64,000 nt of DNA from Bryobacteraceae bacterium (GCA_963825845.1 CAWGVL010000047.1:40416-104415), one strand, 5' to 3'. Shown: positions 35,726 to 59,615, counted from the first letter of the stretch. Numbers and translations: made by a program. Notes: generated by a model not told the origin, from the letters alone.

Positions 35726-35815
35726 GGTGAGGTGCGAGAGTGGTTGAATCGGGCGGTCTCGAAAACCGTTGAACCTTCACGGGTTCCGTGGGTTCGAATC
35801 CCACCCTCACCGCCA
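35726..35815 (+). tRNA. tRNA-Ser (anticodon CGA), CCA encoded
   Basis: Acceptor GGTGAGG/CCTCACC. Anticodon arm GCGGT-CTCGAAA-ACCGT (T33, CGA, A37). Long variable arm. T arm GTGGG-TTCGAAT-CCCAC. Ends GCCA. An extended -10-like TGGTACAAT sits at 35698-35706. Confidence 0.9.
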
Positions 35816-35897
35816 TTTTAGAATCAGTCTTTTACGCGGAAAGCCCCGCAAACCTCGAGCAATTTTGGGTAATGCCTCCGGTATGATCGGGCCGTTT

Positions 35898-36951
35898 ATG
35901 GCACTCAATCTTATACCGCAGTCATCGTTGCCATTGCGTTGGCGGCCGAGCGCTGCACCGATGACGTACGAAGCCGATGAGCTTCGCCGCAGTTCGAAAA
36001 CCGCAGCTGTCCTATATACACGTCCGGCACACTGGGCGGACGATTCAAGCGGAAGAATACGGAACGAGCGAAATGGGACGAAGCTAAGTCCATCGTGAGG
36101 GCGTGGGAAGAAGCTTGTTCCTGGGGCGGCTCGGTCAAAGTGGAGACATCGGGTCCAGCAGCACCCACTGCCATCGCCCAGCCTGCGGCACGCATTACCA
36201 TCGTCGATGCAATGGCTGCCTTCCTTGCGATCCGTGAAGGTCGAAAATTGCACCGTCGACATTACGGAAGTACCGGACTTTCTGTAGACAGCTGCGGGCC
36301 TTGCAGATGATAGGGGCTACATCATGTTGGACGAGTTTAGCGCTGCGGACGTTGACGGCTTCTATTCCCGATGGCAGCTTGGTCCCCGCGCGAAGGGCAA
36401 AGCTCCGGGTACCCTGCGGGCGTTCTCCCGGTTCGCAGTCGCGCGCGAGTGGTTGATCAAGAATTCGGTGACCAGTGACCCGAAGCCTCCCCTTGGTGCC
36501 AATCCTGTGGCCAACGAATTCCCGTTCACGGATGAAGAACTCGATCGCATCTACGGGCGTGCGATCGGATCCGGGCTACCGAGTGGACGAACGGCCACAC
36601 AACCGGTATCTGGACCGGAGAAGACGTAAAGGACTTCATCTACTTGTCGGCGCAGACGGGTCTGCGGATTTCGGACGCGACCGTCGTTTTACCAGCGGGG
36701 ATTCAGACAGGCTGGAAACCGTGACCGACCCTTGGCGCAGACGACTAAACAAGGTGTTTGCTCCGGGCCGGGAATTTCGCCCAGACTCCCACGCCCCACC
36801 GATTCCGTCATACGTTTGCGCGCGTTCTGGTTCAGCGTGGCGTGCCCGTTTCGGATGTCGCGGATCCACCGGGCGACGACGAGGTGACCGTGCGCGAGTA
36901 TCATGCACGCTGGTATCTGAACGGCAGGCCCGGTTGACCACCATCCTGTGA
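35898..36951 (+). pseudogene. tyrosine-recombinase (phage-type) integrase remnant: several frame breaks plus internal deletion
   Basis: Pieces lie in at least 4 frames: MALNL...MTYEADELRRS; KWDEAKSIVRAWEEA; ITIVDAMAAFLAIREGRK; MLDEFSAADVDGFYSRWQLGPRAKGKA..LRAFSRFAVAREWL; GEDVKDFIYLSAQTGLRISDA; HRFRHTFARVLVQRGVPVSDV; RQARLTTIL-stop. Only ~40 codons separate LRISDA from HRFRH, which is too short. Confidence 0.7.
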
Positions 36952-37257
36952 GAGGCGTTCGACGGAGATCCTAAACCGAGGTTGTTGGTCTCGCACCGCA
37001 AGCGCGTATAAGCCCAGCAATCCCGTTTTTTAGCGAGGCACATTGGATAGATCCGCTGATTTTGTTCGAGGGCTATAAGCTCTGCGGAGCGGAGCATAAC
37101 GACAGTCGGTATCGGTAGATGATCACGCGTACACAACTCACCCTCGTGTAGAGCACTGCCGCCCCGTTTCGGTGTGTTGACACATGTGAGGATGCACTCC
37201 CTTCAAAATCAAAACGGCTCATTTCGGCTCGTTTTTATTTACGTGCGGCCGCCGAGT

Positions 37258-37900
37258 TCACCGGCCGAGAGAACTATACAACGCCCTCGCGCGCGGATGG
37301 GTGTTTGCGACGCGCCGGAAAGAGAGAATGGTCGGGTCGCTGTAAGACGTGTTAGTAGTCCCAAGACTCGTGTCGGAGTGGCAGTGGTTAAGCATTTGGC
37401 GAACCGCCACCTGGGCATAAATCGGTCCATTAGCGCTATGAACCGAGCGTTGTGTGGTCGGCGCCAGCAGGTGCACCATCTCATGAACAATGATGTATTC
37501 GAGGCATTCCGGTGGCTTCTTCGCCAGTTCCGTGTTCAGGCGAATCGTGCCTGCACGGTCGTTGCAACTCCCCCATTTGGTTTTCATTCGCTGGACGAAG
37601 AATCGCTCAACTCTCACTCCCATTCTTGGCGCCTAGCGGGCGATCATAGATGAAATCGTCTCCTTGAGCAGTCGGCGATACCACTCGTCAACAACCGCCT
37701 GTCTCGCCTCTTCGCTCGTTCCGGGACGCACCCGCAGTATCAGCTTTCCCTGTTTGAGCTCGACCATGGCGGAGCATCAACCTCGATAACCCTGAGCACG
37801 CACCGCTTACCAGAGATGTAGTGGCTCTCGCGGTCGAGATACTCGCGGGTCGCCTCACGTTCCTGCTCCCGGAGCTTTTTCTGTTGCTGCCTTATCCGGG
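37258..37900 (-). pseudogene. DUF45 / YgjP-like M48-type metallopeptidase remnant (in-frame TAG plus frame breaks)
   Basis: MVELKQGKLILRVRPGTSEEARQAVVDEWYRRLLKETISSMIAR-TAG(37633-37635)-APRMGVRVERFFVQRMKTKWGSCN...ECLEYIIVHEMVHLL (HExxH). HNARFIALMDRFMPRW follows in another frame. The upstream piece ESHYISGKRCVLRVIEV is in a third frame. Confidence 0.65.
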
Positions 37901-37904
37901 GAGT

Positions 37905-38450
37905 TTGGAGACGGCGAACACTCGGATCGTGTCGCCGCGCATTCGCGCTGGTGCTGAGATCCGAACTGTGCCAGACGCGATACTATTCTGTGGCATTCGA
38001 TACGCTGCATGATGCCATTGCGAATCCCGAAAATCGGCCGGGTTGAGTTCCGCGTCAGGTATGTTGCTACAAGAGAGACGGTTCAAGCCGAATCGCGCTT
38101 GAGCAATGAGAGTCGACTTAAACGCGAGTGTCTCGTTGAGCGAAAAGAATTGCGTTCGCGCGTGGAAGGTATGCTCAAAGCCGGGACGGTGTTGCCGATG
38201 TACGTGGGCTCTATGCTCCTACTGATCGATGCTGTAGTAGCCGTGCAACTGGTCATTCCGACTGAACGTGTGACTGATGTCGATGCCCATTTGATCGTTG
38301 TCGACTGGAGCCGAAGCCGAGCCGAAAAACCCGCGACGTGCCACCGGAGTCGATGAATTCCGCCAGTGGAAGAAGATAACCGGGGGAGTTGATCTTCGTT
38401 TCCGGAGATCGGAGCCAAACAGGGGATTTGACACCGTCGACGGTCTGCCG
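37905..38450 (-). pseudogene. fragment of a TonB-dependent-receptor-like / carboxypeptidase-regulatory-like outer membrane protein (tentative)
   Basis: Short pieces in different frames: FFGSASAPVDNDQMGIDISHTFSRNDQLHGYY and ARFGLNRLSCSN resemble barrel strands of acidobacterial TonB-dependent receptor-like proteins. No start, plug domain or C-terminus is present. Confidence 0.3.
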
Positions 38451-38451
38451 G

Positions 38452-39308
38452 CTAATAGGCAGTCAGGCCCACTTTCCGAAACTGCGCACAAGCTTCTCCG
38501 ACCTGATCCGCAGAAGGCGGATGACTATCGCGCAGTTTGTAATCGAGTCTCAGCGAGTCCCATTTAAAACGACCCAGTTGATGGAACGGCAACACATCAA
38601 CTCGAAGTACCACGTTAAGCCTCGCAGCAAAACGGGCAATGTTTTCGATGTCCCGCGGATCGTCCGTCAACCCGGGTACCAACACAAAGCGAAGCCATAT
38701 CGCTCTGTTTCGAGTGGCAAGGCGACGTGCGAAATTGAGGACCGGCTCGACATCCAGACCGGTAAGACGAAGGTGCCGGTCCGCGATCAAACGCCTTGAT
38801 ATCAAGCAATACCAGGTCAATCGTATTCAGGTCTTCGTCGGTCAGTCGATCGCCAAAGTACCCATTAGTATCCAACGCGGTGTGGATGCCCATAGCCCTG
38901 TGCTGCGGCAAAGAGTTTCGCGGCAAACCGGTGCTGCATGAGCGGCTCTCCACCGCTCAGAGTGAAACCACCCGACATGATCCTCAACCCATGCCGGTAC
39001 TTGCGCAACTCCTCCACTGCAGTCTCGATGGTACCGGAATGCCATTCATCATGTTCCAGGTATCCGGGTTATGACAATACAGGCAGCGGAACTGGCATCC
39101 TGATGTCCAAGCGACAACACGGACGCCCGGACCGTCGACGGTGGAACCGGTGGTAAACGAATGCAGGAATCCCATATCGCCGCTGGCTAGCGCCGATCTG
39201 GACATCCGATCCGGGCACATCCGCTAGCGAGCCTACGCGAAGTTCATGCGGGCTTTTCGCCTGCAGCGGAGTTTGTCGCGCTGTTTGAGCTACAGGCATG
39301 AGATTCAT
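38452..39308 (-). pseudogene. pflA: pyruvate formate-lyase activating enzyme (radical SAM), at least 3 frame breaks
   Basis: [39 protein letters not shown] (ORF 38984-39220). [50 protein letters not shown]...LVLLDIKA (ORF 38615-38953). LRFVLVPGLTDDPRDIENIARF...DVLPFHQLGRFKW (ORF 38452-38820). An ATG at 39308 overlaps the pflB stop. Confidence 0.85.
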
Positions 39309-41559
39309 CGTCCATGGAAGGTGCGGTTGATCACGTCCATCTGCTGCTCGCGCGTCAGGCGCACGAAATTCACTGCATAACCGGATACTCGTATGGTGAG
39401 GTGCGGATATTTTTCCGGGTGATCCATCGCATCCATCAACATGTCACGATTGAGAACGTTGACGTTAATGTGGTAATCCCGTAGTACTAAAGTAAGCATC
39501 CAGCATGCTCGGTGAGATTGGTAATCTGATCCGCCGGAACACGGCCCAGACCTTGCGGTACGAGCGAAGCGGTAAGAGAGATGCCGTCCTCCGCATCGCG
39601 ATAGGGAATCTTGGCGACGGAGGCAGCAGCGGCCTGAATTCCATGGCTGTCCCTGCCGTGCATCGGGTTGGCGCCGGGAGCAAACGGTTCTCCCTTACGC
39701 CGCCCATCCGGAGTGTTGCCGGTAGCTTTGCCGTATACGACATTCGAAGTGATCGTCAGAATGGACTGTGTATGACGCGCATTGCGATAAGTGGGATATT
39801 TCCTCAACTTGTTCATGAACGTGCTCACAAGCCAAGCGGCAAGTTGATCCACGCGATTGTCGTTATTTCCGAATTTCGGAAATTCGCCTTCGGTCAAGAA
39901 GTCGGTATCAAGGCCGGATTCGTCCCGGATCGACACGCACTTTTGCATAGCGTATCGCCGAAAGACTGTCGGCGACCACGGACAGGCCCGCCATACCAAA
40001 AGCCATGGTACGAACGGGAGCGTAGTCATGCAGCGCCATCTCGATACGCTCATAGGCATACTTGTCGTGCATGTAGTGGATTACGTTCATCGCATTGACA
40101 TAAACGCCCGCAAGCCAGTCCATCATCTCGTTCGAATCCGCCACAACATCGTCGATATCAAGGTAATCGCCTTCTACGTCCCCAGAGGCCGGCGCGATCT
40201 GCTCGCCGGTGATTTCGTCCCTCCCTCCGTTGATCGCATACAGCAGGCACTTGGCGAGATTGGCACGTGCGCCGAAAAACTGCATCTGCTTACCGATCAG
40301 CATGGGTGAGACACAGCAGGCAACGGCGCCATCATCTCCCCAGGCACGGCGCATAATATCGTCGCTTTCAAACTGAATAGAGCTGGTATCGATGGCTACC
40401 CGGGCGGCAAACGTTAAATCCGTCAGGCAAGCGCGGCGAATACCAGATAGTAAGGTTCGGCTCCGGTGCGGGACCTAAGTTATAGAGGGTTTGCAGAAAC
40501 CGAAAGCTGGATTTTGTCACCAGCGGCCGTCCATCGTCGCCACATCCCGCGATCGATTCGGTAACCCAGGTGGGATCGCCCGCGAAGAGTTCATCATAGT
40601 CGGGTGTGCGCAGAAAACGGACGATACGCAGCTTGATTACAAAATCATCGACGATTTCCTGGGCCTGCTCCTCAGTGATCACACCGGCCTCAAGATCGCG
40701 CTGAAATAGATATCAACGAAGGTCGATACCCGGCCCAACGACATGGCAGCGCCGTTCTGTTCCTTCACTGCCGCCAGATAGGCAAAGTAGAGCCACTGTA
40801 CCGCTTCGCGGGCATTGCTCGCCGGGCGGGAGATGTCGAAGCCGTACTTCCAAGCCATCTCCTGGGTTTCCTGCAGCGCGCGTATATGTTCGCTGAGTTC
40901 TTCGCGGTCGCGAATGATTTCTTCGGTCGACATGGCCGTGTCGAGGCTACGCTTCTCAGCTTCCTTGACCGCAATGAGGCGAGACAAACCATACAGTGGC
41001 ACACGCCGATAATCACCGATGATACGGCCCCTTCCGTAAGCGTCGGGAAGCCCTGTCAGGATATGAGAACTCCGGCACTTTCGGATATCCGCCGTGTACG
41101 CATCGAAGACACCATTGTTGTGGGTCTTGCGATACCTGGAAAAAGTTTCAACCACATGCGGGTCAGCTTCATAGCCATACGCCTTAAAAGCAGTCAAAAC
41201 CATTCGCAAACCGCCGTTAGGCATGATTGCGCGCTTCAGCGGCGCATCGGTCTGCAGCCCTACGATAATTTCCCGATCACGGTCGATATAGCCAGGCTCA
41301 TGAGCGGTGATCGAACTCGGAATCTGGGAAATGTCCAAGACACCTTTTCGACGTTCTTCTAGAAGAGTTCATTCAGCAGATCCCAGATTTTGTTCGTACG
41401 CTCGGTTGCGGATGCAAGAAACGATTCATCTCCTTGATAGGGTTGTAATTGTGCTGAATGAAATCCCGAACGTTGATCTCCTTCTGCCAAAGACCCCCTT
41501 TGAAATCCGCCAGGGAAAACGAGTTCCTTCGCTGTTTCGGGCAGTGCTGTTGCAGCCAT
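39305..41559 (-). pseudogene. pflB: pyruvate formate-lyase (glycyl radical enzyme), at least 7 frame breaks
   Basis: Colinear pieces: GLWQKEINVRDFIQHNYNP / YQGDESFLASATERT; ORF 40679-41338 (GLPDAYGRGRIIGDYRRVPLYG); 40368-40682 ([16 protein letters not shown]); 39908-40354 (ACCVSPM catalytic Cys pair); 39487-40059 ([20 protein letters not shown]); 39305-39499 (TIRVSGYAV glycyl-radical motif). Confidence 0.9.
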
Positions 41560-41579
41560 AGTGATTCCTCTCTCCTTGT

Positions 41580-42772
41580 CTATGCGTGGGCCGCGATCAA
41601 CCCGAGCAGCAGGCCCATATGCCGGGCGATCATCAGCTCTTCATTGGTCGGAATGACCCACGCGAAACTTTGCTTCCGCGCGACGAAATAAGGGAATCGC
41701 CGTGGACGTTGGCATTCATCATCGAGCTCAATTCCAGCCATGCGGACGATCGGCAGATCCGCCTCCGGATTTCAGCGGAGTTCTCTCCGATTCCGGCGGT
41801 GAAGACAAGTCCGTCAACTCCTCCCAAGTACGGCGGCCAGTGCGCCGATCTCTTTCGCCGCACGGTAGACGAAGTAGTCAACGGCGAGGCGCGCTTCTGG
41901 TTCAGGGCTCTCGAAGAAGATCGCGCATATCGTTGCTCATCCCTGAGATGCCAAGCAGGCCAGATTTTTTATAGAGCATCGTTCGGCACTCATTCGCAGT
42001 CATTCGCAGATTTTGAAACAGGTGCAGAATGACGCCAGGATCGAGGGAGCCCGGCCTTGTGCCCATGCAGAGTCCGTCGAGCGCTGTAAACCCGAGGCTG
42101 CAATCGACACTCTTGCGGTCCTTCATCGCGCAAAGACTGGCGCCGCTTCCAAGGTGAGCTACGATGACTCGTCCTTCGGCGATCTCGGGCGATATCTGCG
42201 GCAACGCCGTCGCGATGTATTCGTAGGAGAGACCGTGAAAGCCATATCGCTGCACGCCTGACTCGCGAATTTTCGCGGAAGTGGAACCAACTGTGCGAGG
42301 GGAGACTGGGTCCGATGGAAGCTTGTATCGAAGCAGGCTACCTGAGGCACATTCGGCAGCCGTTCGAAGACTGCGTGAATCGCGGCGAGATTGTGCGGCT
42401 GATGCAGCGGGGCAAGCGGCTCCAAGGCGTGCAAATCAGCGAGAACCTGCTCGTAATTACTGTTGGTCCCGTATATTGCGAGCCGCCATGCACTACACGA
42501 TGTCCAACGCCGAGGACCCGCGCGCCCGCATACGTGGATCTGAGCCACCCGGCGAGCGCACCGAGGGCACTACGCTGATCTGGATCGAGGTATCGAGTTG
42601 ATCGTCGACAAGGGCTCACCTGCGCTATACGGGCAGAAATGCGCGGGGACGTGCCGATCCCGTCGATCTGCCCTCTTGAGGCCAGCTTCCAACTCTCGCC
42701 CGACGGTCTCACAAACACACAGAATTTCAGACTTGACGATCCTGCATTTAGCACAAGCGCGTAATCATCCAT
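41580..42772 (-). pseudogene. ackA: acetate kinase, at least 4 frame breaks
   Basis: MDDYALVLNAGSSSLKF...GVGHRVVHGG (frame of ORF 42338-43147). [10 protein letters not shown]...VACFDTSFH (42159-42548). [12 protein letters not shown]...[12 protein letters not shown] (41902-42255). GVDGLVFTAGIGENS (41633-41881). VIPTNEELMIARHM-...-stop at 41580-41582. Confidence 0.85.
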
Positions 42773-43713
42773 GACTGACGCTCCTCGTTTGTTCTTTGCG
42801 GCGCGCGTGTGCCACCAAAGCAGGCAACCGCACAACTGGCAATCCGGGAGCGTACAGCTGTCGGCGCGGCTGGTCAGAACTATCGGGACTCGTGCGCCGA
42901 GCACTAATCCTGCGCTATCGGCATTTGCGAGAAAGGTAAGTTGCTTGGCGAGAATGTTACCGGCCTCAAGATCCGGGGCAAGTAGGATGTCGGGATCGCC
43001 GGCAACAGGCGGAATGATTTTCTTGGTCTTCGCAGCCTGCTTGCTGATGGCATTATCAAAGGCGAGAGGGCCGTCGAGAATGCCTCCAGTGATCTGCCCT
43101 CGTTCCGCCATTTTGCACAGCGCGGCGGCATCGATCGTCGCAGGCATTTTCGAAGTAACCGTCTCGACTGCAGCAAGAATGGCGATTTTGGGTTCCTTTA
43201 ACCTAGTGAGATCGCCATGTCGATAGCGTTCTGGCAGATGTCGACTTTGTCTTCGAGGGTTGGGGCGATGTTGATCGCCGCATCCGTCACGATAAGCACC
43301 TTGTGGTACGTGGGGACATCCATGATGAACACATGGCTAATACGGCGTCCGGTTCGCAGCCCCGTGTCGCGCGCGACGACAGCCCCCAGCAGTTCGTCCG
43401 TATGCAGGCTGCCCTTCATCAGCATTTCTGCCCTGCCCTCGCGCACCAGCTGCACCGCTCTCACAGCTGAATCATGGCTGTGTGGCGCGTCGATGATTTC
43501 GATTCCGCTGATGTTCAATTGTGATGATTTCGCTATGTCCCTGAGCTTGTCCGCAGGGCCGACAAGAATGGGAGTGATCAGGCCCCTGGCGCCGGCTTCG
43601 AGGGCGCCCTCGAGCGCCGATTGCTCGCAAGGGTGAACGACAGCGGCGGGTACGGGCGCCAAGCCCGCGCAGCGCTCGAGAAGTCGCTCGTATTTTCCCG
43701 TTCCAGGATTCAT
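42765..43713 (-). pseudogene. pta: phosphate acetyl/butyryl-transferase (short PTA_PTB family), at least 2 frame breaks; 3' end approximate
   Basis: ORF 43198-43713 reads VVHPCEQSALEGALEA...ITPILVGP...LMKGSLHTDELL...VTDAAINIAPTLEDKVDI. ORF 42338-43147 then reads MPATIDAAALCKMAERGQI.GGILDGPLAFDNA...GDPDILLAPDLEAGNILAKQL...GARVPIVLTSRADS. The C-terminal tail frame is ambiguous. Confidence 0.75.
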
Positions 43714-44951
43714 GCAGCCTCCACAGCAGTTTTTAGTTCGACACGCACGTGGCGGCCGGTTTCCTTCAGGGCAAGCGTTAGCACCATAGCGAGCGCTACG
43801 CCGTAGAGAAGCGGTTCAAATGTGACTTGGTATCGCTCGAGAGGCGTCCTCTCAGCCGCCCCGAGACCTTTCATGATCGATCCAAAAACCGGGCCTACGA
43901 GCGCACTAAACGTTAAGTTCAGAAAGCTGACCACACCCGTTGCCGTCCCACTAAGGCTCGGTGGGTTGGCTTCCTTGCTGACCGTATAAGTCAGCATCGA
44001 AGCCCCGGACGCGACACCGGCTATCAAGCCAACGAAATACGGCGGGAACACACCGGTTTGCCCATACAAAATCCAGGCGAGACAAGCTAGGAGCACGAAT
44101 GCTCCACCCACGATCACCGGCTTCCTGCGGCCTATACGATCGGAGAGCAGACCCAGCAGAGGACAACCAATAATCCACCCAAGCGGGACCATCGACGAAC
44201 GCATAACCGCATCGCCATAGTTAAATCCGTGCGCCTCCTGTAAGAATCGAACCCCCCAAATCATGTCGAAGATGGTGGTTGGAATGAAGAGGAGTCCTGC
44301 AATGAGACCACACAGAATGGTCTGAGGGTTCTTCAACACGGTAAACAGCGTTGCAACGGAACCTTTTTCCGAATCGAGGTTGCTCGAACGGCCGGGAAGA
44401 AGAAAGAACAGAACGGCCCCTATCAGTACGCCAGTCAGTCCCATCCCGGCCCAAAAAACAGCCCACGGCAAGCCTCTCGCGATCATCGGCCCTACAAGAA
44501 TCTGTCCCGCCCATCCACCGGCCATTCCGAACATCTGCGCGGCGCCCGTTAGGGTCGCTGCCAGCGACGACGGAAAGCTGTTGCTGGCTATATAAATGGT
44601 CCCGACTAGGGCAAACGCTCCTCCGGCGCCTTGAACTATCCGACCCACGGTGGCAAACGTCAAATCCCCGCTCGCAAAGAGCAACGAACCCAATCCAGTG
44701 AGAAGAGCGCCAGCCGGCAGTACTGCCCTTGCTCCGAACCGGTCAATGACCGCGCCGGCTATCAGGCTGAATGCGGAGTAGCCATAGTAGAAAACACCGA
44801 CCATCGATGCCGCTGCGATGGCAGTGAGGTTGTAGGCATCGGACAATTGCGGCAACATTACCGCAGGCGCCGAGCGGAGCGCGTACTGAAAAAAGTAAAA
44901 GGTAGCTGCGAGAAGCCACGCGATTCCGGCCGCGCCTGTGAGCGTTCGCAT
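43710..44951 (-). CDS. MFS transporter (substrate unknown)
   Basis: 413 aa with ~12 TM segments. GAVIDRFGARAVL is the MFS loop 2-3 motif. The stop overlaps the pta ATG (ATGA at 43710-43713). Confidence 0.8.
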   Translation of the reverse strand: MRTLTGAAGIAWLLAATFYFFQYALRSAPAVMLPQLSDAYNLTAIAAASMVGVFYYGYSAFSLIAGAVIDRFGARAVLPAGALLTGLGSLLFASGDLTFATVGRIVQGAGGAFALVGTIYIASNSFPSSLAATLTGAAQMFGMAGGWAGQILVGPMIARGLPWAVFWAGMGLTGVLIGAVLFFLLPGRSSNLDSEKGSVATLFTVLKNPQTILCGLIAGLLFIPTTIFDMIWGVRFLQEAHGFNYGDAVMRSSMVPLGWIIGCPLLGLLSDRIGRRKPVIVGGAFVLLACLAWILYGQTGVFPPYFVGLIAGVASGASMLTYTVSKEANPPSLSGTATGVVSFLNLTFSALVGPVFGSIMKGLGAAERTPLERYQVTFEPLLYGVALAMVLTLALKETGRHVRVELKTAVEAA

Positions 44952-44963
44952 TATCGAGCCCCG

Positions 44964-46601
44964 TTAGCAGAGTACGAGCGCCGCGAGTCCCGCCTCGGAC
45001 GTTTCTTTATATTTCGGATTCATGTCTTTGGCGGTCATCGCCATTGCAGCGATGCAGGTATCGAGGTCCACGCGCCGTCTGGTTTCGATCTCGTTGGAGG
45101 CGATGGTATATGCGGTCCAAGCCTTCACAGCCCCGAAGGCACAACGCTCGATGCAAGGTACTTGCACGAATCCGGCAATCGGGTCGCAGGTCATACCCAG
45201 ATGGTGCTCCAAAGCAGACTCGGCGCCATTTGCCGCCACCATAGGTCCCGCGAACTGTGACTCGGCCACCATAGCCGCACCCATAGCCGAGGCCACTCCA
45301 ATCTCAGCCTGACAACCGCCTTCCGCAGCCGATAAGGTGGCATTATGTTTGCACAAGTAGCCGACCGCAGCAGCAGCCAAAAACCCATTTCGGAGCGCCT
45401 GTGGTTGAACTTTGCGGTAATCGCGAAGACCCTTCACCAGCGCGGGAAGCACGCCGGCGGACCCTCCCGTGGGAGCTGTCACAATAATGTGCCCGCGCGC
45501 ATTTTCCTCAGAGGCGGCCAGTGCGGCAGCAGATAGTGTCGCAATGGCACGATCAGTTTGGAATTCGTTGCTCTGCGCGCGTTTGAATACGGTTGCGGCT
45601 TTGCTTTGAAGCCTGATGGGACCGGGCAGCACTCCTTCCGCTTTCAGCCCGGTGTTTACCATTCCCATCATTACGTCCGTGACTTGGTCGATGAAGTCCC
45701 AAACCTGTTTCTCGCTCTTCCCCGAGATAGCCATTTCGTTGACGAGCATCACTTTTGAGAGTGGGATCTTCTTGTCTACTACGTGGCGCAACAGCTCCTT
45801 CATCGTGGAGTATGGGTATTTCGGTTGGCCCTTGTCGGGCGGTTTGTAGCCCTTCCATTCGATGAAGCCGCCACCGACCGAGTAATACTCCAATTCGTAC
45901 AGCTTTTCCTGGCCTGCCATCAACACGGCGCGCATCGTGTTCGGGTGCGGATAAGTACCCTTTGTGTCGTCGAACACGACATCGTTCAGAGTGAGGTTAA
46001 GGTTTGTAGGACCAAGAACGAGTTTGTGCTGTTGGCCGGGATTTGCGGCCAAGCCGTCGAGAAACTCGGGCGGACAGGTTGCCGGGGCTTTGCCTAGCAG
46101 TCCGGCGAGCGCGGCACGGTCGGTGCCGTGGCCTTTCCCGGTCGCACTGAGACTTCCAAAGAGATTCACTTTCACTGCGGTGGCTCGCTTGAGCTGATCT
46201 TCAGGGAGCTTCGAGATTCGCTGGTAGAAGTCGTAGGTGATCCGCATCGGCCCCATGGTGTGAGAACTCGAGGGTCCGGGCCCCATCTTGAAGAACTCGT
46301 CAATCATGGTCATGACCGGAGCTTTGGACTTCTGGACGACATCGAGGTCGGGAGAGACCATTGACACCGGCACCACCGAGGCTTCTGGCGCCGCTTGCAC
46401 CTTCACTTCCTTCTGAGTAGAGCAGCCACTGAGAATTGCCGCGGCTCCTCCCAAAGCGGTGCGCGCCATCTCGCGCCGGCTCATGGATGCCGAATTCTTT
46501 TTCCCTGAGCTGGTTGTCGAACAAGACCCGCACGCGCTTGTGCCGCAGTCGCCGCAACCATCGCCGGCGCTTTTAATCACAGGGAATAGCTTTTCCATCA
46601 A
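44964..46601 (-). CDS. sdaA: L-serine ammonia-lyase (iron-sulfur, single-chain) with ~95-aa N-terminal extension
   Basis: The core starts at MTMIDEFFKMGPGPSSSHTMGPMRI and runs through GSLSATGKGHGTD...TGGSAGVLPA...LSAAEGGCQAEIG...GMTCDP. The ATG at 46601 is preceded by AAGGAG at 6-7 nt. The extension is described under findings. Confidence 0.85.
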   Translation of the reverse strand: MMEKLFPVIKSAGDGCGDCGTSACGSCSTTSSGKKNSASMSRREMARTALGGAAAILSGCSTQKEVKVQAAPEASVVPVSMVSPDLDVVQKSKAPVMTMIDEFFKMGPGPSSSHTMGPMRITYDFYQRISKLPEDQLKRATAVKVNLFGSLSATGKGHGTDRAALAGLLGKAPATCPPEFLDGLAANPGQQHKLVLGPTNLNLTLNDVVFDDTKGTYPHPNTMRAVLMAGQEKLYELEYYSVGGGFIEWKGYKPPDKGQPKYPYSTMKELLRHVVDKKIPLSKVMLVNEMAISGKSEKQVWDFIDQVTDVMMGMVNTGLKAEGVLPGPIRLQSKAATVFKRAQSNEFQTDRAIATLSAAALAASEENARGHIIVTAPTGGSAGVLPALVKGLRDYRKVQPQALRNGFLAAAAVGYLCKHNATLSAAEGGCQAEIGVASAMGAAMVAESQFAGPMVAANGAESALEHHLGMTCDPIAGFVQVPCIERCAFGAVKAWTAYTIASNEIETRRRVDLDTCIAAMAMTAKDMNPKYKETSEAGLAALVLC

Positions 46602-46838
46602 GGGCTCCTTTTATATGCCTCCGGCGCGCATCCAGTCGTGGGCTGATGCGGCACGATGATTCAGGTTCAGGATTTCAGGATTCTTTTCCTGGGGCTGCAG
46701 CGTCGAGTCCTTGCGAGTACACGGAAGCCAGCGCAGTTCGACTGGCTCAGGTCGAGGGCTTGTCGCCCGCGACTCATTCGCGCTGCAGAACTGCGGAGGG
46801 AGGACGGCGCCAGAGGTTCGCTTCGCCGAAGTCTGCCG

Positions 46839-47588
46839 TCACTGAATCTTCCAGTCAGACAGCAGTTGAAATTCCAGACGTGTTTCCGCGGGAATCTTGA
46901 GATGAGGTTGGCCGCTGGCGGACAATGCCGCACCGCCCGCGCCACCGGCCAGGGCGCCTATTGCCGCGCCCGATCCTCCGCCCGCGATCCCGCCTATGAT
47001 TGCTCCCAAGCCCGCGCCGCCGGCAACTTTCCTCGTCGATTTCTTTCCCTCACCCGCTGTTTTCGACTGCGCAACGCTTGTCACCACCTGATACGCGCGG
47101 CCCCGAACAGAAATCGAGTTTACCTTCAACTCGATCAGATCGCTCCCTTTGAATCGCCCGCCTTGGTCGACTTTGGCGGCTACAAGGACGACATCCGCGC
47201 CGCGCGGCACGATCACATCTCCCCCTAACATGATTGGGTCATCGACGGTTCCGCGAAATTGCGCTCCGGCTTTAGTAGAGTCAACATCGATCATCTCGCC
47301 GACGCGCACGCGAAATGGAGTGCCGGCCGGTACCATCACCGGAGGCCGAGCGTCGGATTCGTCCCGAGATCGCGCGTTTGCCTGAAAGAAGTTAAAAGAA
47401 AAAACCCCTTCAACCGGAGGCTTATTAGCTTGGGCGGATGGGGTTACGATGTCGCCATACCGAAAGCTTCCTCCGGCGAAGGCGCCGTCGAGAGCTTTCC
47501 CGTCGCGAGATCGACCGGTATCCGCCCCAAGCCACGAAGTTCCCCCGGTGAGCGTGAGGATTAGTACCTGAACCCAGACTTGTTTCAT
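46839..47588 (-). CDS. secreted protein with C-terminal glycine-zipper segment; function unknown
   Basis: Start taken at MKQVWVQVLILTLTGGTSWLGA (ATG 47588), because upstream ORF-track residues lack coding character. C-terminus: GGAGLGAIIGGIAGGGSGAAIGALAGGAGGAAL. Confidence 0.5.
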   Translation of the reverse strand: MKQVWVQVLILTLTGGTSWLGADTGRSRDGKALDGAFAGGSFRYGDIVTPSAQANKPPVEGVFSFNFFQANARSRDESDARPPVMVPAGTPFRVRVGEMIDVDSTKAGAQFRGTVDDPIMLGGDVIVPRGADVVLVAAKVDQGGRFKGSDLIELKVNSISVRGRAYQVVTSVAQSKTAGEGKKSTRKVAGGAGLGAIIGGIAGGGSGAAIGALAGGAGGAALSASGQPHLKIPAETRLEFQLLSDWKIQ

Positions 47589-47766
47589 AGTCGTTTCTCG
47601 AAGTGAAGTTCCGCCGGATTGATGCGACTCTCGCGTCGCGAGGTTTACAAAATCACTCCTAGCGTCAAGCGCGCCTGAACCCTCTGTGTACGAATATGTT
47701 GGACCCTGCAGGATCAAGGTGGAATCTGAGCTTTGACACGGAATCTTTGACCTGGAGGAACTGACA

Positions 47767-50055
47767 TTGAGTCCACAGTTGCCTGTCCACGTACTCGTAA
47801 GACTCATCGCGTTCGGAGTTCTTGTCTGCTTCAGAATACTCGCTGCCGAAGCACCGCAGCCCGAAAAGGCGATTGCGACCGACCCGGGCTGGCCCCGGCA
47901 GTATGGCGACGAAAGCGGGAAGCTACTCATCTATCAGCCGCAGGTTGATAGCTGGGAAGCCTTCCGCCGGATGAAAGCGAGGTTTGCGGTTGCGCTGACA
48001 CCAAAAGGGAGACAAGCGATGTACGGCACCCTAGTGGTGGAAGCGAACACTTCCATTGACATGGATTCGCGCACCGTGGCGCTTTCGGATTTCGCCGTTG
48101 GAGATGTACGCTACTCTTCCGCATTGAGCGAATCTGAAACACAGCGATTGCAGTCATTGACGTTAGCTTTGTTTCCCAAAGTGCCGACTAACGTGTCACT
48201 CGATCGAGTGTTGGCATACATGGACACTACCAAGATCCAAGCACGTAATACTGCGGTATCGCTCGATCCACCCCCGATCCTTGTCAGCATGCAACCGGCA
48301 ATTCTAGTGATCATCGACGGCGAGCCGGTATTCTTGGACATCGAAAACACGAAGCTGCAGAAAGTATTGAATACCAACTGGGACTTGTTCCTAGAAACGA
48401 AGAGTAAAAAATTCTACCTGCGGAACGGCAAATCATGGCTCTCGGCGAAAGAGCTGTCCGGCGCCTGGAAGAATGAGACGAAACTGCCCGATGACTTTCG
48501 CAAACTTCCCGATACCGAAGAATACAAGGAAGTGAAGCAAACAGCCGCGTCCCCGCAGAAGACCGAAACGGTCACGTTGGTAATCGCGGTAAATAAACCG
48601 TCGGAAATTATCGTTATAGCGGGCAAGCCCGTATTGGAGGCGGTGACGGGAACCGAACTGAGTTGGGTCAGCAACACGGATTGCGATCTGTTCTACGCTG
48701 CAGGCGATCATAATTACTATTTCCTTACGTCAGGACGTTGGTTCCGTACCTCTGATCTGCGAGCAGGCAAGTGGGAGGCCGCGACCAACTCCCTTCCGCC
48801 GGACTTCAAGAAGATTCCGACCGGTCACCCGCGCGCCCACGTACTCGCAGCGGTGCCCGGTACGAGGCAGGCCCAAGATGCCGTGCTGATGGCTTCCATC
48901 CCGCAAACGGCGGCAATCGATCGCAAGACAGCGCAAGCGAAGGTGGAGTATGTCGGCGGTGAGCCCAAATTTCAGGCGATCTCCGGCACCAACCTTTCTT
49001 ATGCGACAAACACCCCAAGCGACGTATTGCGAGTCGGCGACTCTTATTATCTTTGCCTGGATGGGGTGTGGTTTGTCGCCTCTTCACCCAAGGGCACGTG
49101 GAGTCTAGCGGACAAGGTTCCCAGTGAGATCTACCAAATTCCTTCTGAGTCTCCAAAACATAATGTCACCTATGTGACCGTACAGCAATCGACGCCTGAA
49201 ACTGTAGTCTACAGCTACACGCCGGGATACACGGGAGTGTACGTTTCATACGGCGTCGCGATGTGGGGTACCGGATATTATTACCCACCATATTACGGAT
49301 GGGGCTACTATCCGTACCCAGTTTACTGGCCATATGGCTACTACACCTATGGCGCGAGCGCCTGGTACAACCCGATGACAGGCGCCTACGCGCGAGGGGG
49401 CGCCGTATATGGTCCGTACGGAGGATACGGGCGCGCAGCCGCTTATAACCCCTCTACTGGACGATACTCATGGGGGCAGACGGCGTGGGGGCCATACGGA
49501 GCGGCGGCTTCGGGAGGCTTCTACAATCCCAATACAGGAGCGTGGGGCGGCAGGGCCGCGGCGTCGAACGGGTATCAAACCTGGGGGAGTAGCGTTGTCG
49601 GACGCGGCAATCAAACGGCGCGAACTGCGTCGTATTCGGACAGCCGGGGCACAGTGGCGGGCATAAAGGGATCAGGCGGAGGCGCGGCAATTGCAGCCCG
49701 AGGTAATCAGGGCCAGGGCTTCGCCGCACGGTCGGCAGCGGGGGACATCTACGCCGGCAGGGACGGTAACGCGTACAAAAGGGACCAGTCGGGACAGTGG
49801 TACAAGAACAACGGCGGATCCTGGGAAGGCATACAGCAGCGCCCGACTCGAGACCAGACCGGCAATGCAGCTCAGTCTCGAAGCGGAGCAGGGTCTGCGG
49901 GAACGTCGCAATCAGTGGAAGCATTAAACCGGGATGCGGCGGCCAGAAGTAGGGGCAACTACAACTCCGGAAGAGCCGCTACGACGAGGTCAACGGGGAG
50001 TTATAGCGGCTCGCGCTATGGAGGCTACGCAGGCCGAGGGGGCAGACGCAGATAA
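47767..50055 (+). CDS. large secreted protein: three ~65-aa internal repeats plus Tyr/Gly/Trp/Pro-rich C-terminal low-complexity region; function unknown
   Basis: TTG start, signal-like VRLIAFGVLVCFRILAAEA. Repeats carry GEPVFLDIENTKLQKVLNTNWDLF..YL..GKSWL...GAWK...LPDDFRKLP and two paralogous copies. The tail has YNPMTG / YNPSTG / YNPNTG units. Confidence 0.6.
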   Translation: MSPQLPVHVLVRLIAFGVLVCFRILAAEAPQPEKAIATDPGWPRQYGDESGKLLIYQPQVDSWEAFRRMKARFAVALTPKGRQAMYGTLVVEANTSIDMDSRTVALSDFAVGDVRYSSALSESETQRLQSLTLALFPKVPTNVSLDRVLAYMDTTKIQARNTAVSLDPPPILVSMQPAILVIIDGEPVFLDIENTKLQKVLNTNWDLFLETKSKKFYLRNGKSWLSAKELSGAWKNETKLPDDFRKLPDTEEYKEVKQTAASPQKTETVTLVIAVNKPSEIIVIAGKPVLEAVTGTELSWVSNTDCDLFYAAGDHNYYFLTSGRWFRTSDLRAGKWEAATNSLPPDFKKIPTGHPRAHVLAAVPGTRQAQDAVLMASIPQTAAIDRKTAQAKVEYVGGEPKFQAISGTNLSYATNTPSDVLRVGDSYYLCLDGVWFVASSPKGTWSLADKVPSEIYQIPSESPKHNVTYVTVQQSTPETVVYSYTPGYTGVYVSYGVAMWGTGYYYPPYYGWGYYPYPVYWPYGYYTYGASAWYNPMTGAYARGGAVYGPYGGYGRAAAYNPSTGRYSWGQTAWGPYGAAASGGFYNPNTGAWGGRAAASNGYQTWGSSVVGRGNQTARTASYSDSRGTVAGIKGSGGGAAIAARGNQGQGFAARSAAGDIYAGRDGNAYKRDQSGQWYKNNGGSWEGIQQRPTRDQTGNAAQSRSGAGSAGTSQSVEALNRDAAARSRGNYNSGRAATTRSTGSYSGSRYGGYAGRGGRRR

Positions 50056-52595: not shown

Positions 52596-53515
52596 CTAAT
52601 ATGATTTCCCGATCCACGAATACTGCCAAGCGGCGGAGAAGGTCTGGAAACTCCCGCCTATTCTTGTCACCGCTCCGCGGCTGTGGCTGAACTTCAAAGA
52701 GTGGCGCGGACCAAGCGGCGCCGAAACTGTCAAGCCGACGCGGGAGTCCCTATGCTGGTCCTGTTTTCCCATACCGTTGATCGAGGAACGTCCACCCATC
52801 CAGAAATTGCTATCGAACGAGGCCCATAAGCGTGGTTTGATGTAGTAGCCGGCGTGAGCTTCGAAAGCCACTATCGGGTCCTGGGTTCGTTTTGCATCGC
52901 CTGGATAGAAGTTAGTATTTGAGGTAAATAGCCAAACTCCGGTGTAACCTTCCACGATCGACGCGCTGCCATTTGCGCGTAAAGCCAATCTCCGGTTTAA
53001 AAGCCCAGCGATTCGAACCTATGTTGATGATTCGGGCGCGATCGTTCTGGCCGAGAGGGATCACAGTCGTGAGGCTGACCCCGATCAACCGCTTTTCATG
53101 CCACCCCAAAAACTCCTTCGCGCGCATCGCCGGCCCCCCCACAAGATTCATGGAGACACGTATACGCGCATCGGCCAGTCCCGAAGGGCTCACCTTCGCC
53201 TCGATTCCGTTTACAATGCCACTGAAGCTTCCTGTCGCATACGGCATCGAGAGGACCAGGTTTGACGATCGTCCCAAAACTGCTAGATGAGTGGTAGTAA
53301 CTCAGAACCGACGTCTGGAAAGAGCCCTTTGCATCGTCGATAGGAACTGAGGGATCGAATGTGATCTCTCCTTCGTTCCAACTGTGAGAAAATGTGACGG
53401 CGTTGGAACCTATCGGCGTAATAACATACGCGCGTGGAGCGAGATCCTGTGCACGCGCCAGCGTAGCAATCACAAAGGCGATAAGCCACGCCCCATTCTC
53501 GGATCTCACTATCAA
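52596..53515 (-). pseudogene. outer-membrane beta-barrel protein (transporter / MetA-pathway phenol-degradation-like family, tentative), 2 frame breaks
   Basis: Three colinear ORFs in three frames: 53096-53515 (signal AWLIAFVIATLARAQD, then APRAYVITPIGSNAVTFSHSW), 52912-53277 (IINIGSNRWAFKPEIGFT), 52596-52988 (alternating-hydrophobic strands, ending FSAAWQYSW). Confidence 0.5.
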
Positions 53516-57381: not shown

Positions 57382-57732
57382 ATGGGGAAATTACTCTTTG
57401 CAGTTTCAATAATGGTGATCGGCCTTGCCGGCTCGGCTCTTGCTCATGCAGTTCTCGTCGCCGCAGTACCGCCCGTTCGCGGATCCGTTTCCGGTCCAGA
57501 AGTTGTGTTCCGCCTCCAGTTCAACTCCCGGATCGACGCAGCACGTTCAACTTTGAAGCTGGTTTTGCCCGACACGAAGATCCTTTCTCTCCCCATGGGA
57601 CCCCAACCTTCACCAGACAGCCTAACTGCGCGATCGACGGATTTGAAACCCGGAAGTTACACGCTACTCTGGCAGGTGCTCGCGACAGACGGGCACATCA
57701 CGCGGGGTGAAGTGCCGTTCGCGGTCCGGTAG
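57382..57732 (+). CDS. copC: copper resistance protein CopC (periplasmic copper-binding)
   Basis: Signal MGKLLFAVSIMVIGLAGSALA, then the mature N-terminus HAVLV. ...YTLLWQVLATDGHITRGEVPFAV is the typical CopC C-terminus. 116 aa. Confidence 0.8.
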   Translation: MGKLLFAVSIMVIGLAGSALAHAVLVAAVPPVRGSVSGPEVVFRLQFNSRIDAARSTLKLVLPDTKILSLPMGPQPSPDSLTARSTDLKPGSYTLLWQVLATDGHITRGEVPFAVR

Positions 57733-57737
57733 GAAAC

Positions 57738-59378
57738 GTGCTGACGCAACTTCTGGATGTATTTAGCTTCATCTCGGTGCTCCTACGCGGTGCAGCATCG
57801 CGTTCCAGTCGCTGATCCTCGGCGGAGTCGTATTTAGTTTCTGGGTTCTCAAGCCACTGAGTGAACTCCTCGATTCGCCGGCTGACGACGTCGTGGGATC
57901 GAGTAGACGCCTGATCACGTGGTCCGCCTTGGCGCTCGCTTTGGTGCAGATTGGTTACGTCACGGCGGATTCGGTGTTGCTCACGGGAACGACTGGTCTC
58001 GGGTGGCGTGATCTTGCAGGCGCTGGTTTCTTTGTTTCTGGAGGCACTAGCGCAGTCGCGGCGCTGATCACCGCAGAAATCGTAAGACGCCGAGGCTCGA
58101 CGCCACCACCAGCGCTGATGGCTGCGTCAATGATCATCCTAAGCACGCTTGTGGCGACGAGCCATGCAGCCGGACGAATGGAAGGGCGCACGGCCCTCTT
58201 GGCGTTGAGTGCCATCCACATGCTGGCAGTCGGGTGTTCGATCGGCGGATTACCTTACTTCTGCTCACACTGAAACGAGCGCCGAATCTCGTGATCCGCC
58301 GCTGGGTCTGTCACCGATTTTCGAAGCTGGCAACGCTGAGCGTCGTGGTACTCGCCGCTGCGGGATGGCTGCTGTCATGCGTGTATGTAGGTTCTCGCGA
58401 AGCAGTTTACGGCACTGCCTATGGAGCGATGGTCGTGTCTAAAGTGATACTCTTTGCAGTTCTGCTGCTTCTCGGAGGGCTAAATTTTTTGATCGTCCGC
58501 CGAATCTCCACCGCGGATGACGAAGTCATCACCAAGCTGCGGCGGTTCGCCGAAGCGGAAATTGGCATTGGGTTTACGGTCATTTTCGCTGCAGCTTCGC
58601 TGACTTCGCAGCCGCCCGCGGTAGATCTCAGCGCGGACCGTGTTGCACTATCCGAGATTGTGCAGAGGTTTACGCCACAATGGCCTACCTTCAGCACGCC
58701 GCCAGTCGAATCTCTGTCACCAGCTACCCCCTTGTTTGTTGACACTGAAGAAAACACTTCCCATGCTCCGCAGTCGACGTGCCTGGGACTTTGTACCAAC
58801 CCAGCACGGCTAGTGATATAGCGTGGTCCGAATATAATCATCACTGGTCCGGGGCTATCGTTCTCCTTGTGGGATTATTAGCGCTTGGGGCGCGAGTGCC
58901 CGCGCTTTCCTGGGCTCGTAACTGGCCCCTTGCCTTTTTAGCTCTCGCCGTATTCTTGTTCCTCCGCGCTGACCCCGAGAACTGGCCATTAGGTCCGCGA
59001 GGTTTTTGGGAGAGTTTCCTGGTGGCAGAGGTGCTCCAGCATAGGTTATTTGTGGTCCTTATCGTCCTGTTCGGATTTTTCGAATGGGGGGTTACAACGG
59101 GACGGATCTCCTCTCCTCGGGCAGCACTTGTCTTTCCAGGAGTTTGTGCTGTCGGAGGCGCGCTGCTGCTGACTCACGCGCACCCGCTCGGGAATATCCG
59201 ACAAGAACTCTTATCAGAACTGAGTCATATACCTCTCGGAATCCTGGGCGTCGTTGCGGGGTGGTCACGATGGCTCGAGTGGCGTACTGCCGACAATTCG
59301 CGCGGAATTCTTTGCTACATATGGCCTGCTTGTTTTGTGCTGGTCGGAGTGATACTCCTTAACTACCGCGAGAGCTGA
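57738..59378 (+). pseudogene. copD: CopD-family copper resistance membrane protein with extra C-terminal membrane domain; at least 3 frame breaks
   Basis: GTG 57738 lies 5 nt after the copC stop. Colinear hydrophobic pieces occur in frames 0/2/1/0: LTQLLDVFSFISVLLRG; ORF 57893-58273; ORF 58234-58821 (VSKVILFAVLLLLGGLNFLIVRR); ORF 58779-59378 (HHWSGAIVLLVG...LLLTHAHP). Confidence 0.7.
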
Positions 59379-59615
59379 ACAACAGCGTCTTGAAAGACGA
59401 CCGTCTGGTGAGATTTCACCATATGGCATCCAAGCTGCTGCAGACTCATCACGGTCGAGAGAGTGCGCCGGGATTCAGGGTGTAATCTCCCTGGCCATAA
59501 ACAACGCTCAGGACGACTCAACCCGTAAATGACAGGGTGAGGGGCGCACATACAAAAATTTGCAGCCAATTGGCTGTGGCGGTTAATCATGCCTGTGTCG
59601 ATTCCCGGCTGACTA

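Follow-up and report, generated by a model that had tools for sequence, protein, structure and literature searches.

The stretch of DNA analysed here (64,000 nucleotides from a Bryobacteraceae bacterium, GCA_963825845.1 CAWGVL010000047.1:40416-104415; referred to below as the window) carries six minus-strand genes in the order sdaA-MFS-pta-ackA-pflB-pflA, which would together turn serine into acetate, formate and ATP. The first two of these genes are uninterrupted, and the last four are broken in many places, which raises the question of whether a fermentation operon is being lost in this organism or whether the sequence itself is at fault. An earlier note on this DNA had left two explanations standing: recent relaxed selection on the pfl arm of the pathway, and a local assembly or coverage problem. 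Judged from the sequence, the operon is most probably an ordinary one of functional type, from an uncultured, Bryobacteraceae-like organism within the class Terriglobia of the Acidobacteriota, and the frame breaks in its distal four genes are most probably sequencing or assembly errors and not decay (probability about 0.85).

Number, position and type of the frame breaks

The breaks were counted by alignment to L001, a contig from ENA that carries all six genes intact and in the same order, with 86% DNA identity to the window over 9 kb and an SdaA that is 93% identical. Against this reference the isolated single-base indels of the operon fall into one dense block (Table 1), with 21 deletions and 15 insertions. 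All indels of the block measure 1–2 nt, and 72% of them lie outside homopolymers, compared with a background of 58%. Lasting changes of frame amount to at least 27 in total, three of them in pta and the others distributed as listed in Table 1; the earlier note had therefore recognized the damage correctly but, at "at least 15" breaks in the last four genes, had set the count too low.

The sequence from 46625 to 43205, which includes sdaA and the MFS gene, shows no change of frame over 3,436 nt, and the two genes are uninterrupted, as the earlier note had described them. Because a clean stretch of this length has a probability of only about 1e-5 under a uniform rate (calculated from the L001 alignment), the unevenness of the damage is real, and the earlier claim of non-uniformity stands. 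The first indel is found at 43204, 510 nt inside pta, so that the boundary of the block does not coincide with the start of a gene. A sharp step in divergence from L001 at this 43.2-kb boundary would have indicated a chimeric join; no such step was detected.

Selection on the repaired genes

Once the indels were removed against L001, the four broken genes displayed no internal stop codon in approximately 1,750 codons. The repaired AckA, PflB, and PflA are 87%, 89%, and 93% identical to their counterparts in L001, and protein identity over the broken genes (87–93%) compares with 89–93% in the intact sdaA and MFS genes. The best database homologue of the repaired PflB, again at 89% identity, is the cluster that represents the relatives of L001. 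Differences from L001 concentrate at the third codon position in the repaired genes; pflB, for example, has 0.059 and 0.057 at positions 1 and 2 against 0.379 at position 3.

A relative-rate test was then used to compare the window with L001 at sites conserved in 11–12 Terriglobia outgroups. Unique replacements in the four broken genes number 26 in the window and 26 in L001, and those in the two intact genes 12 and 8, respectively. Indels are about 10 times rarer than substitutions in bacterial mutation-accumulation data. If the 36 indels were neutral, hundreds of substitutions would therefore be expected, including about 200 extra replacements at the tested sites and more than 10 nonsense codons, but none of the excess in substitutions, replacements, or nonsense codons expected under neutral decay was observed. 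The rate check on repaired alignments proposed in the earlier note, carried out here as codon-position and relative-rate tests, returned normal third-position-biased divergence. Recent relaxed selection on the pfl arm, one of the two explanations that note had offered, is not supported by genes that after repair are free of nonsense codons, have as many unique replacements as their intact orthologues, and keep their third-position bias.

As a separate observation, third positions in pflB differ from L001 at 38%, compared with 23–30% in neighbouring genes, with positions 1 and 2 staying low. A different allele, recombination, or strain mixture may be the reason.

Damage in unrelated genes of the window

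The damage is not restricted to the operon, and unrelated genes elsewhere in the window are frameshifted alike. Codon-usage Viterbi segmentation combined with a map of open reading frames (ORFs) revealed clusters of frame switches at about 36–43.2 kb, 52.6–53.5 kb, and 57.8–60.8 kb; positions 1–35 kb showed no frameshifts and whole-gene frames by the same analysis. The second cluster affects a Phenol_MetA_deg-like outer-membrane protein gene (52605–53512, minus strand; about 315 codons), which is spread over three frames by two frameshifts and whose homologues are colinear across all three in full-length tblastn. A CopD-like gene at 57.8–59.4 kb is likewise split over three frames with colinear homologues (tblastn). 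Pfam searches on the fragments of these other damaged blocks were mostly uninformative.

For the third cluster a relative was available in L163 (contig_12560, a long-read-style name), which is 89% identical to the window. The window changes frame at about 57797, 58234, 59996, 60281, and 60512, in each case within about 30 nt of a single-base gap against L163. L163 is itself riddled with single-base indels at places where the window is intact, and it was dropped as a clean reference for the 57.8–60.8 kb block for being error-laden. Genes at several loci from nanopore-derived metagenome-assembled genomes (MAGs) were recovered as partial matches only. In the stretch 57382–60800 (plus strand) as a whole, the genes broken into several frames are CopC/CopD-like ones and that of an MscS-type channel, the latter in its N-terminal half.

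Origin of the frame breaks

A technical artefact is favoured because the lesions consist of indels only and come without a trace of relaxed selection. Single-base insertion and deletion errors would arise in patches along the contig, one of these patches covering 38.4–43.2 kb, and candidate causes would be a long-read stretch that was unpolished or of low coverage, or a consensus drawn from mixed strains. The local assembly or coverage problem that the earlier note had named as its alternative fits both the indel-only lesions and the damage in unrelated genes. Frameshift-rich long-read metagenome assemblies are alike in having clusters of single-base indels that split conserved genes; the presumed errors in the window differ from those in that they occur in discrete blocks and are not enriched in homopolymers.

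Several points weigh against this explanation. The technical cause is inferred from the sequence. The lack of homopolymer enrichment is unlike the usual current long-read consensus errors and somewhat atypical for polished nanopore data. A near-identical copy of pta-pflA was not found: in metagenome contigs an exact pflB 26-mer had no match, and with AckA nothing exceeded 79% identity, so that the broken region has no same-strain copy there. Contig L002, at 99.3% identity, spans 44990–48621 only and stops short of pta-pflA, and exact look-ups of the MFS protein and two other intact proteins of the window matched no recorded entry. The frame change of the CopD-like gene at about 58779 is common to the window and L163 (at about 10351) and may be no error but a genuine split of the gene or a frameshift inherited from an ancestor. 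Finally, loss does occur in the lineage: the operon is genuinely lost in some relatives, for example in L076 (9926–16700; Bryobacteraceae MAG MFD09368.bin.2.32), which holds a truly degraded copy of the cluster.

The degraded copy in L076, the concentration of damage within the operon on the four fermentation genes, with sdaA and the MFS gene untouched, and the region beside pflA, where a tRNA-Ser and integrase-like and YgjP-like fragments are no longer syntenic with L001, would be in keeping with real recent pseudogenisation. In that case the oxygen-sensitive pta-ackA-pflB-pflA arm would be decaying under relaxed selection, and sdaA and the transporter gene would be retained. We nevertheless consider this very unlikely. 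Genuine decay in L076 looks different, with a large deletion of about 280 codons inside sdaA, a diverged pflB remnant of 39–45% identity, and pflA lost so that OmpA lies directly downstream. The repaired genes of the window show zero nonsense codons, balanced replacements (26 vs 26), and a retained codon-position bias, the edge of the block lies inside pta, and the same type of lesion recurs in unrelated genes. Neither the nonsense and replacement excess of a biological pseudogene nor a natural indel spectrum, with its size range, deletion bias, and homopolymer or repeat enrichment, was found: the indels are all of 1–2 nt and biased neither towards deletion nor towards homopolymers.

The least probable explanation, with a likelihood that we regard as close to nil, is that of genuine frameshifts which the cell tolerates by means of programmed ribosomal frameshifting, transcript editing, or phase variation. 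Nothing specific points to them beyond the fact that the genes remain recognisable, and the changes of frame are too many (at least 27), run in both directions, and have no slippery or homopolymer context, against orthologues that are plain intact ORFs. The selective shredding of the four genes is not to be counted as biology. With sequencing or assembly error as the preferred explanation, the locus instead provides a worked example of how assembly frameshifts can be told from pseudogenes without reads: one looks at the spectrum of indels, searches the repaired genes for nonsense codons, and tests relative rates with an intact orthologue and outgroups.

Gene content and junctions of the operon

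The six head-to-tail minus-strand genes described in the earlier note were borne out by Pfam and NCBIfam searches together with reading of the sequence (Table 1). SdaA reaches 397.3 bits with TIGR00720 (NCBIfam; cut-off 345.1), which classes it as a single-chain iron-sulfur L-serine ammonia-lyase, and PDB entry 4RQO matches it with E = 8e-82, aligned from residue 100 onward. The likely start of sdaA is the ATG at 46596–46598, with a ribosome-binding site AAGGAG (46605–46610) located 6 nt before it. For the MFS protein the best NCBIfam match, TIGR00893, is far below its cut-off, and weak similarity to anion:cation symporter-type families is displayed.

Of the broken genes, pflB as given in the window lacks an uninterrupted reading frame, and its orthologues are intact. 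The PFL-like matches to its fragments jointly span profile positions 48–647 and are accompanied by Gly_radical (Pfam), and its repaired translation possesses the glycyl-radical motif RVSGYAV as well as the adjacent active-site cysteines in VACCVSPM. The CxxxCxxC cluster-binding motif near the N-terminus of PflA reads CQFRCLYC; Radical_SAM and Fer4_12 were found on the L001 orthologue. The catalytic signatures that the earlier note had reported as readable (ACCVSP and RVSGYAV in PflB, CQFRCLYC in PflA) are thus all seen in the repaired translations.

Table 1. Positions of the operon genes, the indel-dense block, and motifs of SdaA in the window, counted from its first nucleotide.
Feature	Position	Strand	Remarks
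sdaA	44964–46601	minus	Intact; Pfam SDH_beta and SDH_alpha in one chain
SdaA N-terminal extension	46299–46601	minus	About 100 codons before the SDH_beta domain
Four-cysteine motif C-x2-C-x4-C-x2-C	46521–46556	minus	In the SdaA extension
SRREMAR, short hydrophobic stretch, lipobox-like LSGC (AAAILSGC)	46422–46481	minus	Followed by a Pro/Ala/Ser-rich linker
MFS transporter gene	43710–44951	minus	Intact; Pfam MFS_1
pta (short phosphotransacetylase)	42765–43713	minus	Pfam PTA_PTB on fragments; first 510 nt clean
pta frame-breaking single-base indels	43204, 42858, 42822	minus	Alignment to L001
ackA (acetate kinase)	41580–42772	minus	Pfam Acetate_kinase on fragments; at least 10 lasting frame changes
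pflB (glycyl-radical pyruvate formate-lyase, PFL)	39305–41559	minus	Pfam PFL-like and Gly_radical; at least 9 lasting frame changes
pflA (radical-SAM PFL activase)	38452–39308	minus	Repaired translation with CQFRCLYC; at least 5 lasting frame changes
Indel-dense block	38432–43204		36 isolated single-base indels relative to the intact L001 operon, plus a few of 2 nt

The junctions were read from the sequence. A gap of 12 nt separates sdaA from the MFS gene, which in turn overlaps pta by ATGA at 43710–43713. The junction of pta and ackA is an 8-nt overlap, ATGGATGA, with the pta stop at 42765–42767 and the ackA ATG at 42770–42772, and ackA and pflB are separated by a 20-nt spacer, ACAAGGAGAGAGGAATCACT, that includes AAGGAGAGAGG. 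The pflB stop occupies 39305–39307. Two starts are available to pflA: an overlapping ATG at 39306–39308 (4-nt overlap) and an in-frame ATG at 39297–39299, 5 nt past the pflB stop, the latter being the start called in L001. In the window and L001 alike, the series of junctions consists of a 12-nt gap, a 4-nt overlap, an 8-nt overlap, a gap of 19–20 nt, and a gap of at most 5 nt. This confirms the tight operon-like junctions claimed before and specifies the one between pta and ackA.

Sites that could split the six genes into separate units, a check also raised by the earlier note, do not exceed shuffled expectation in a consensus scan of the operon: promoter-like internal sites number 3 compared with 4.2 expected in shuffled sequence, and terminator-like internal sites 10 compared with 8.3, which is background level. 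The FNR/CRP-type palindrome TTGATNNNNATCAA has 3 matches in the window, none of them near the sdaA promoter and no more than expected by chance. We infer co-transcription of the six genes.

The operon in relatives

The six-gene architecture is recurrent and not unique to the window. The same six genes are intact on a 144-kb JGI contig whose SdaA is 79% identical, the complete ordered set is present in 21 of 80 GTDB species-representative loci (the others being partial, truncated, or rearranged), and soil metagenome contigs found via AckA have the same order wherever their flanks are long enough. Since it is intact in these sets and in L001, the architecture is real and recurrent; the comparison with orthologous operons suggested in the earlier note thus found them intact and in the same gene order in L001 and dozens of Terriglobia genomes. 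Close SdaA relatives come from soil metagenomes and belong to Bryobacteraceae or Terriglobia where they are named. In the scan of GTDB species representatives, among which the species of the window was not found, the best full-length SdaA match is 73% identical, and a partial match in L076 is 83–89% identical. L002, a short-read contig of JGI sample 3300012469, differs from the corresponding part of the window by 24 mismatches and 2 single-base gaps (99.3% identity), and the population of the window is therefore represented in this public sample.

Not all relatives keep the genes together. The sdaA-MFS pair is kept even where no pfl genes adjoin, and it stands alone in 11 loci, mostly of Bacteroidota; in 4 loci pta-ackA-pflB-pflA follows directly downstream of sdaA without an MFS gene. 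Variants are also known in which pfl is convergent to sdaA or pta-ackA is located elsewhere, and in several Terriglobia the spacing between sdaA and MFS, judged from tblastn coordinates, is about 100–140 nt. These arrangements would suit two transcription units, sdaA-MFS and pta-ackA-pflB-pflA, that are merely adjacent. We consider this unlikely for the window, given the short gaps or overlaps at every junction both here and in L001, the single strand shared by all six genes, promoter- and terminator-like sites that are not above shuffled expectation, and a complete gene order that recurs in at least 21 species.

Proposed pathway and comparison with known systems

The gene identities support the route from serine to acetate, formate, and ATP put forward in the earlier note, and its chemistry can be deduced from well-characterised families. 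SdaA would convert L-serine to pyruvate and ammonium, PflB, activated by the radical-SAM enzyme PflA, would convert pyruvate and CoA to acetyl-CoA and formate, and Pta and AckA would take acetyl-CoA to acetate with the gain of one ATP. Both SdaA and PFL are oxygen-sensitive enzymes, and the module would therefore be anoxic and ATP-yielding. The intact operon is widespread in uncultured soil Terriglobia, suggesting that these heterotrophs, although supposed to be aerobic, can obtain ATP from serine in anoxic conditions and form acetate and formate as products.

The tdc operon of Escherichia coli consists in part of the transporter TdcC, the dehydratases TdcB and TdcG (the latter an iron-sulfur homologue of SdaA), the PflB homologue TdcE, and the AckA homologue TdcD. 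Serine and threonine catabolism is encoded there in a common operon, tdcABCDEFG, that functions anaerobically and whose TdcE is oxygen-sensitive (PMC9040844). The six-gene operon is alike in devoting one operon to the anaerobic fermentation of a hydroxy amino acid, with a short-chain acid, formate, and ATP as the outcome. It differs in lacking the pyridoxal phosphate-dependent TdcB, TdcA/TdcR, and TdcF among the Pfam and NCBIfam families of the six genes, in having an MFS transporter and not a TdcC-type permease, in including pta and pflA, and in its gene order. Its SdaA, further, bears a putative export-type N-terminal extension, and its host is a soil member of the Acidobacteriota. By this comparison, the six-gene operon would work like tdc without being a member of it, and tdc is the nearest known system.

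The enterobacterial focA-pflB-pflA and ackA-pta clusters share the same enzymes and chemistry, and pflB and pflA are adjacent there too. The cluster in the window has no FocA formate channel, its sole membrane protein being of the MFS_1 family, and thus does not belong to the focA-pfl type; the order pta-ackA and the clustering with pfl and a serine dehydratase set it apart from ackA-pta. The earlier statement that such a route had not been packaged as one operon with a transporter was overstated, as E. coli tdcABCDEFG is the classical case and the exact six-gene order is common in uncultured Terriglobia. A literature search found no paper describing the sdaA-MFS-pta-ackA-pflB-pflA architecture. 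We regard the six-gene operon as a variant of known amino-acid fermentation operons that is widespread and has so far gone unremarked.

The N-terminal extension of SdaA

The most novel point to survive the analysis concerns a putative export signal on SdaA, not the frameshifts. The extension has no counterpart in the solved Legionella SdaA structure, which can be aligned only from residue 100. It is found in L001 and among L003–L082, and most relatives have conserved it. The same layout of cysteine motif, twin-arginine-like motif, and lipobox-like sequence (Table 1) is displayed by most of those from Terriglobia and Bacteroidota; relatives from Bryobacterales and proteobacteria have a canonical DRRxFLM twin-arginine motif in its place. 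Of 79 relatives, 35 conserve the combination of RR-x-[FL]-G and [LVA][ATV]GC. Signal models scored low: TIGR01409, the model for the twin-arginine translocation (Tat) signal, gave 13 bits (cut-off 16.7) and did so only in the subtype without the cysteines, and matches of lipoprotein-signal models to the extension remained below threshold.

These features suggest, at somewhat less than even odds, that SdaA may be a Tat-exported, lipid-anchored iron-sulfur L-serine dehydratase acting outside the cytoplasmic membrane. Serine would then be deaminated in the periplasm, and the co-conserved MFS protein would import pyruvate, not serine, to feed the cytoplasmic PFL-Pta-AckA steps. Periplasmic deamination and pyruvate import are suggested, not proven, by the layout of the extension, the co-conservation of sdaA and MFS, and the weak similarity of the MFS protein to anion:cation symporters. 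The apparent export-type signal on SdaA calls into question a role of the MFS protein as serine importer. To our knowledge, no extracytoplasmic serine dehydratase has been characterised, and a literature search returned no paper on an exported serine dehydratase. Should the signal be functional, the first step of the pathway would lie outside the cytoplasm, which would be new for this enzyme family, and C-x2-C-x4-5-C-x2-C ahead of a twin-arginine motif would be a novelty among signals of this kind.

Regions flanking the operon

Synteny with L001 stops right after the pflA stop codon, where L001 has an OmpA-family gene. In the window, 35726–38450 carries a tRNA-Ser(CGA) followed by fragments of an integrase-like protein and a YgjP/SprT-like metallopeptidase. 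No att-like repeat of the 3′ end of the tRNA-Ser was found in 35.6–44 kb, and an Rfam scan of the window returned tRNA only. The region may be what is left of an integrated element, or the error block may extend into it.

On the other side of the operon lie two long ORFs, 46839–47930 (minus strand) and 47767–50055 (plus strand), whose 5′ ends share about 160 nt. No informative family match was obtained for either, save for a weak Gly-zipper match. Their start codons have probably been assigned too far upstream.

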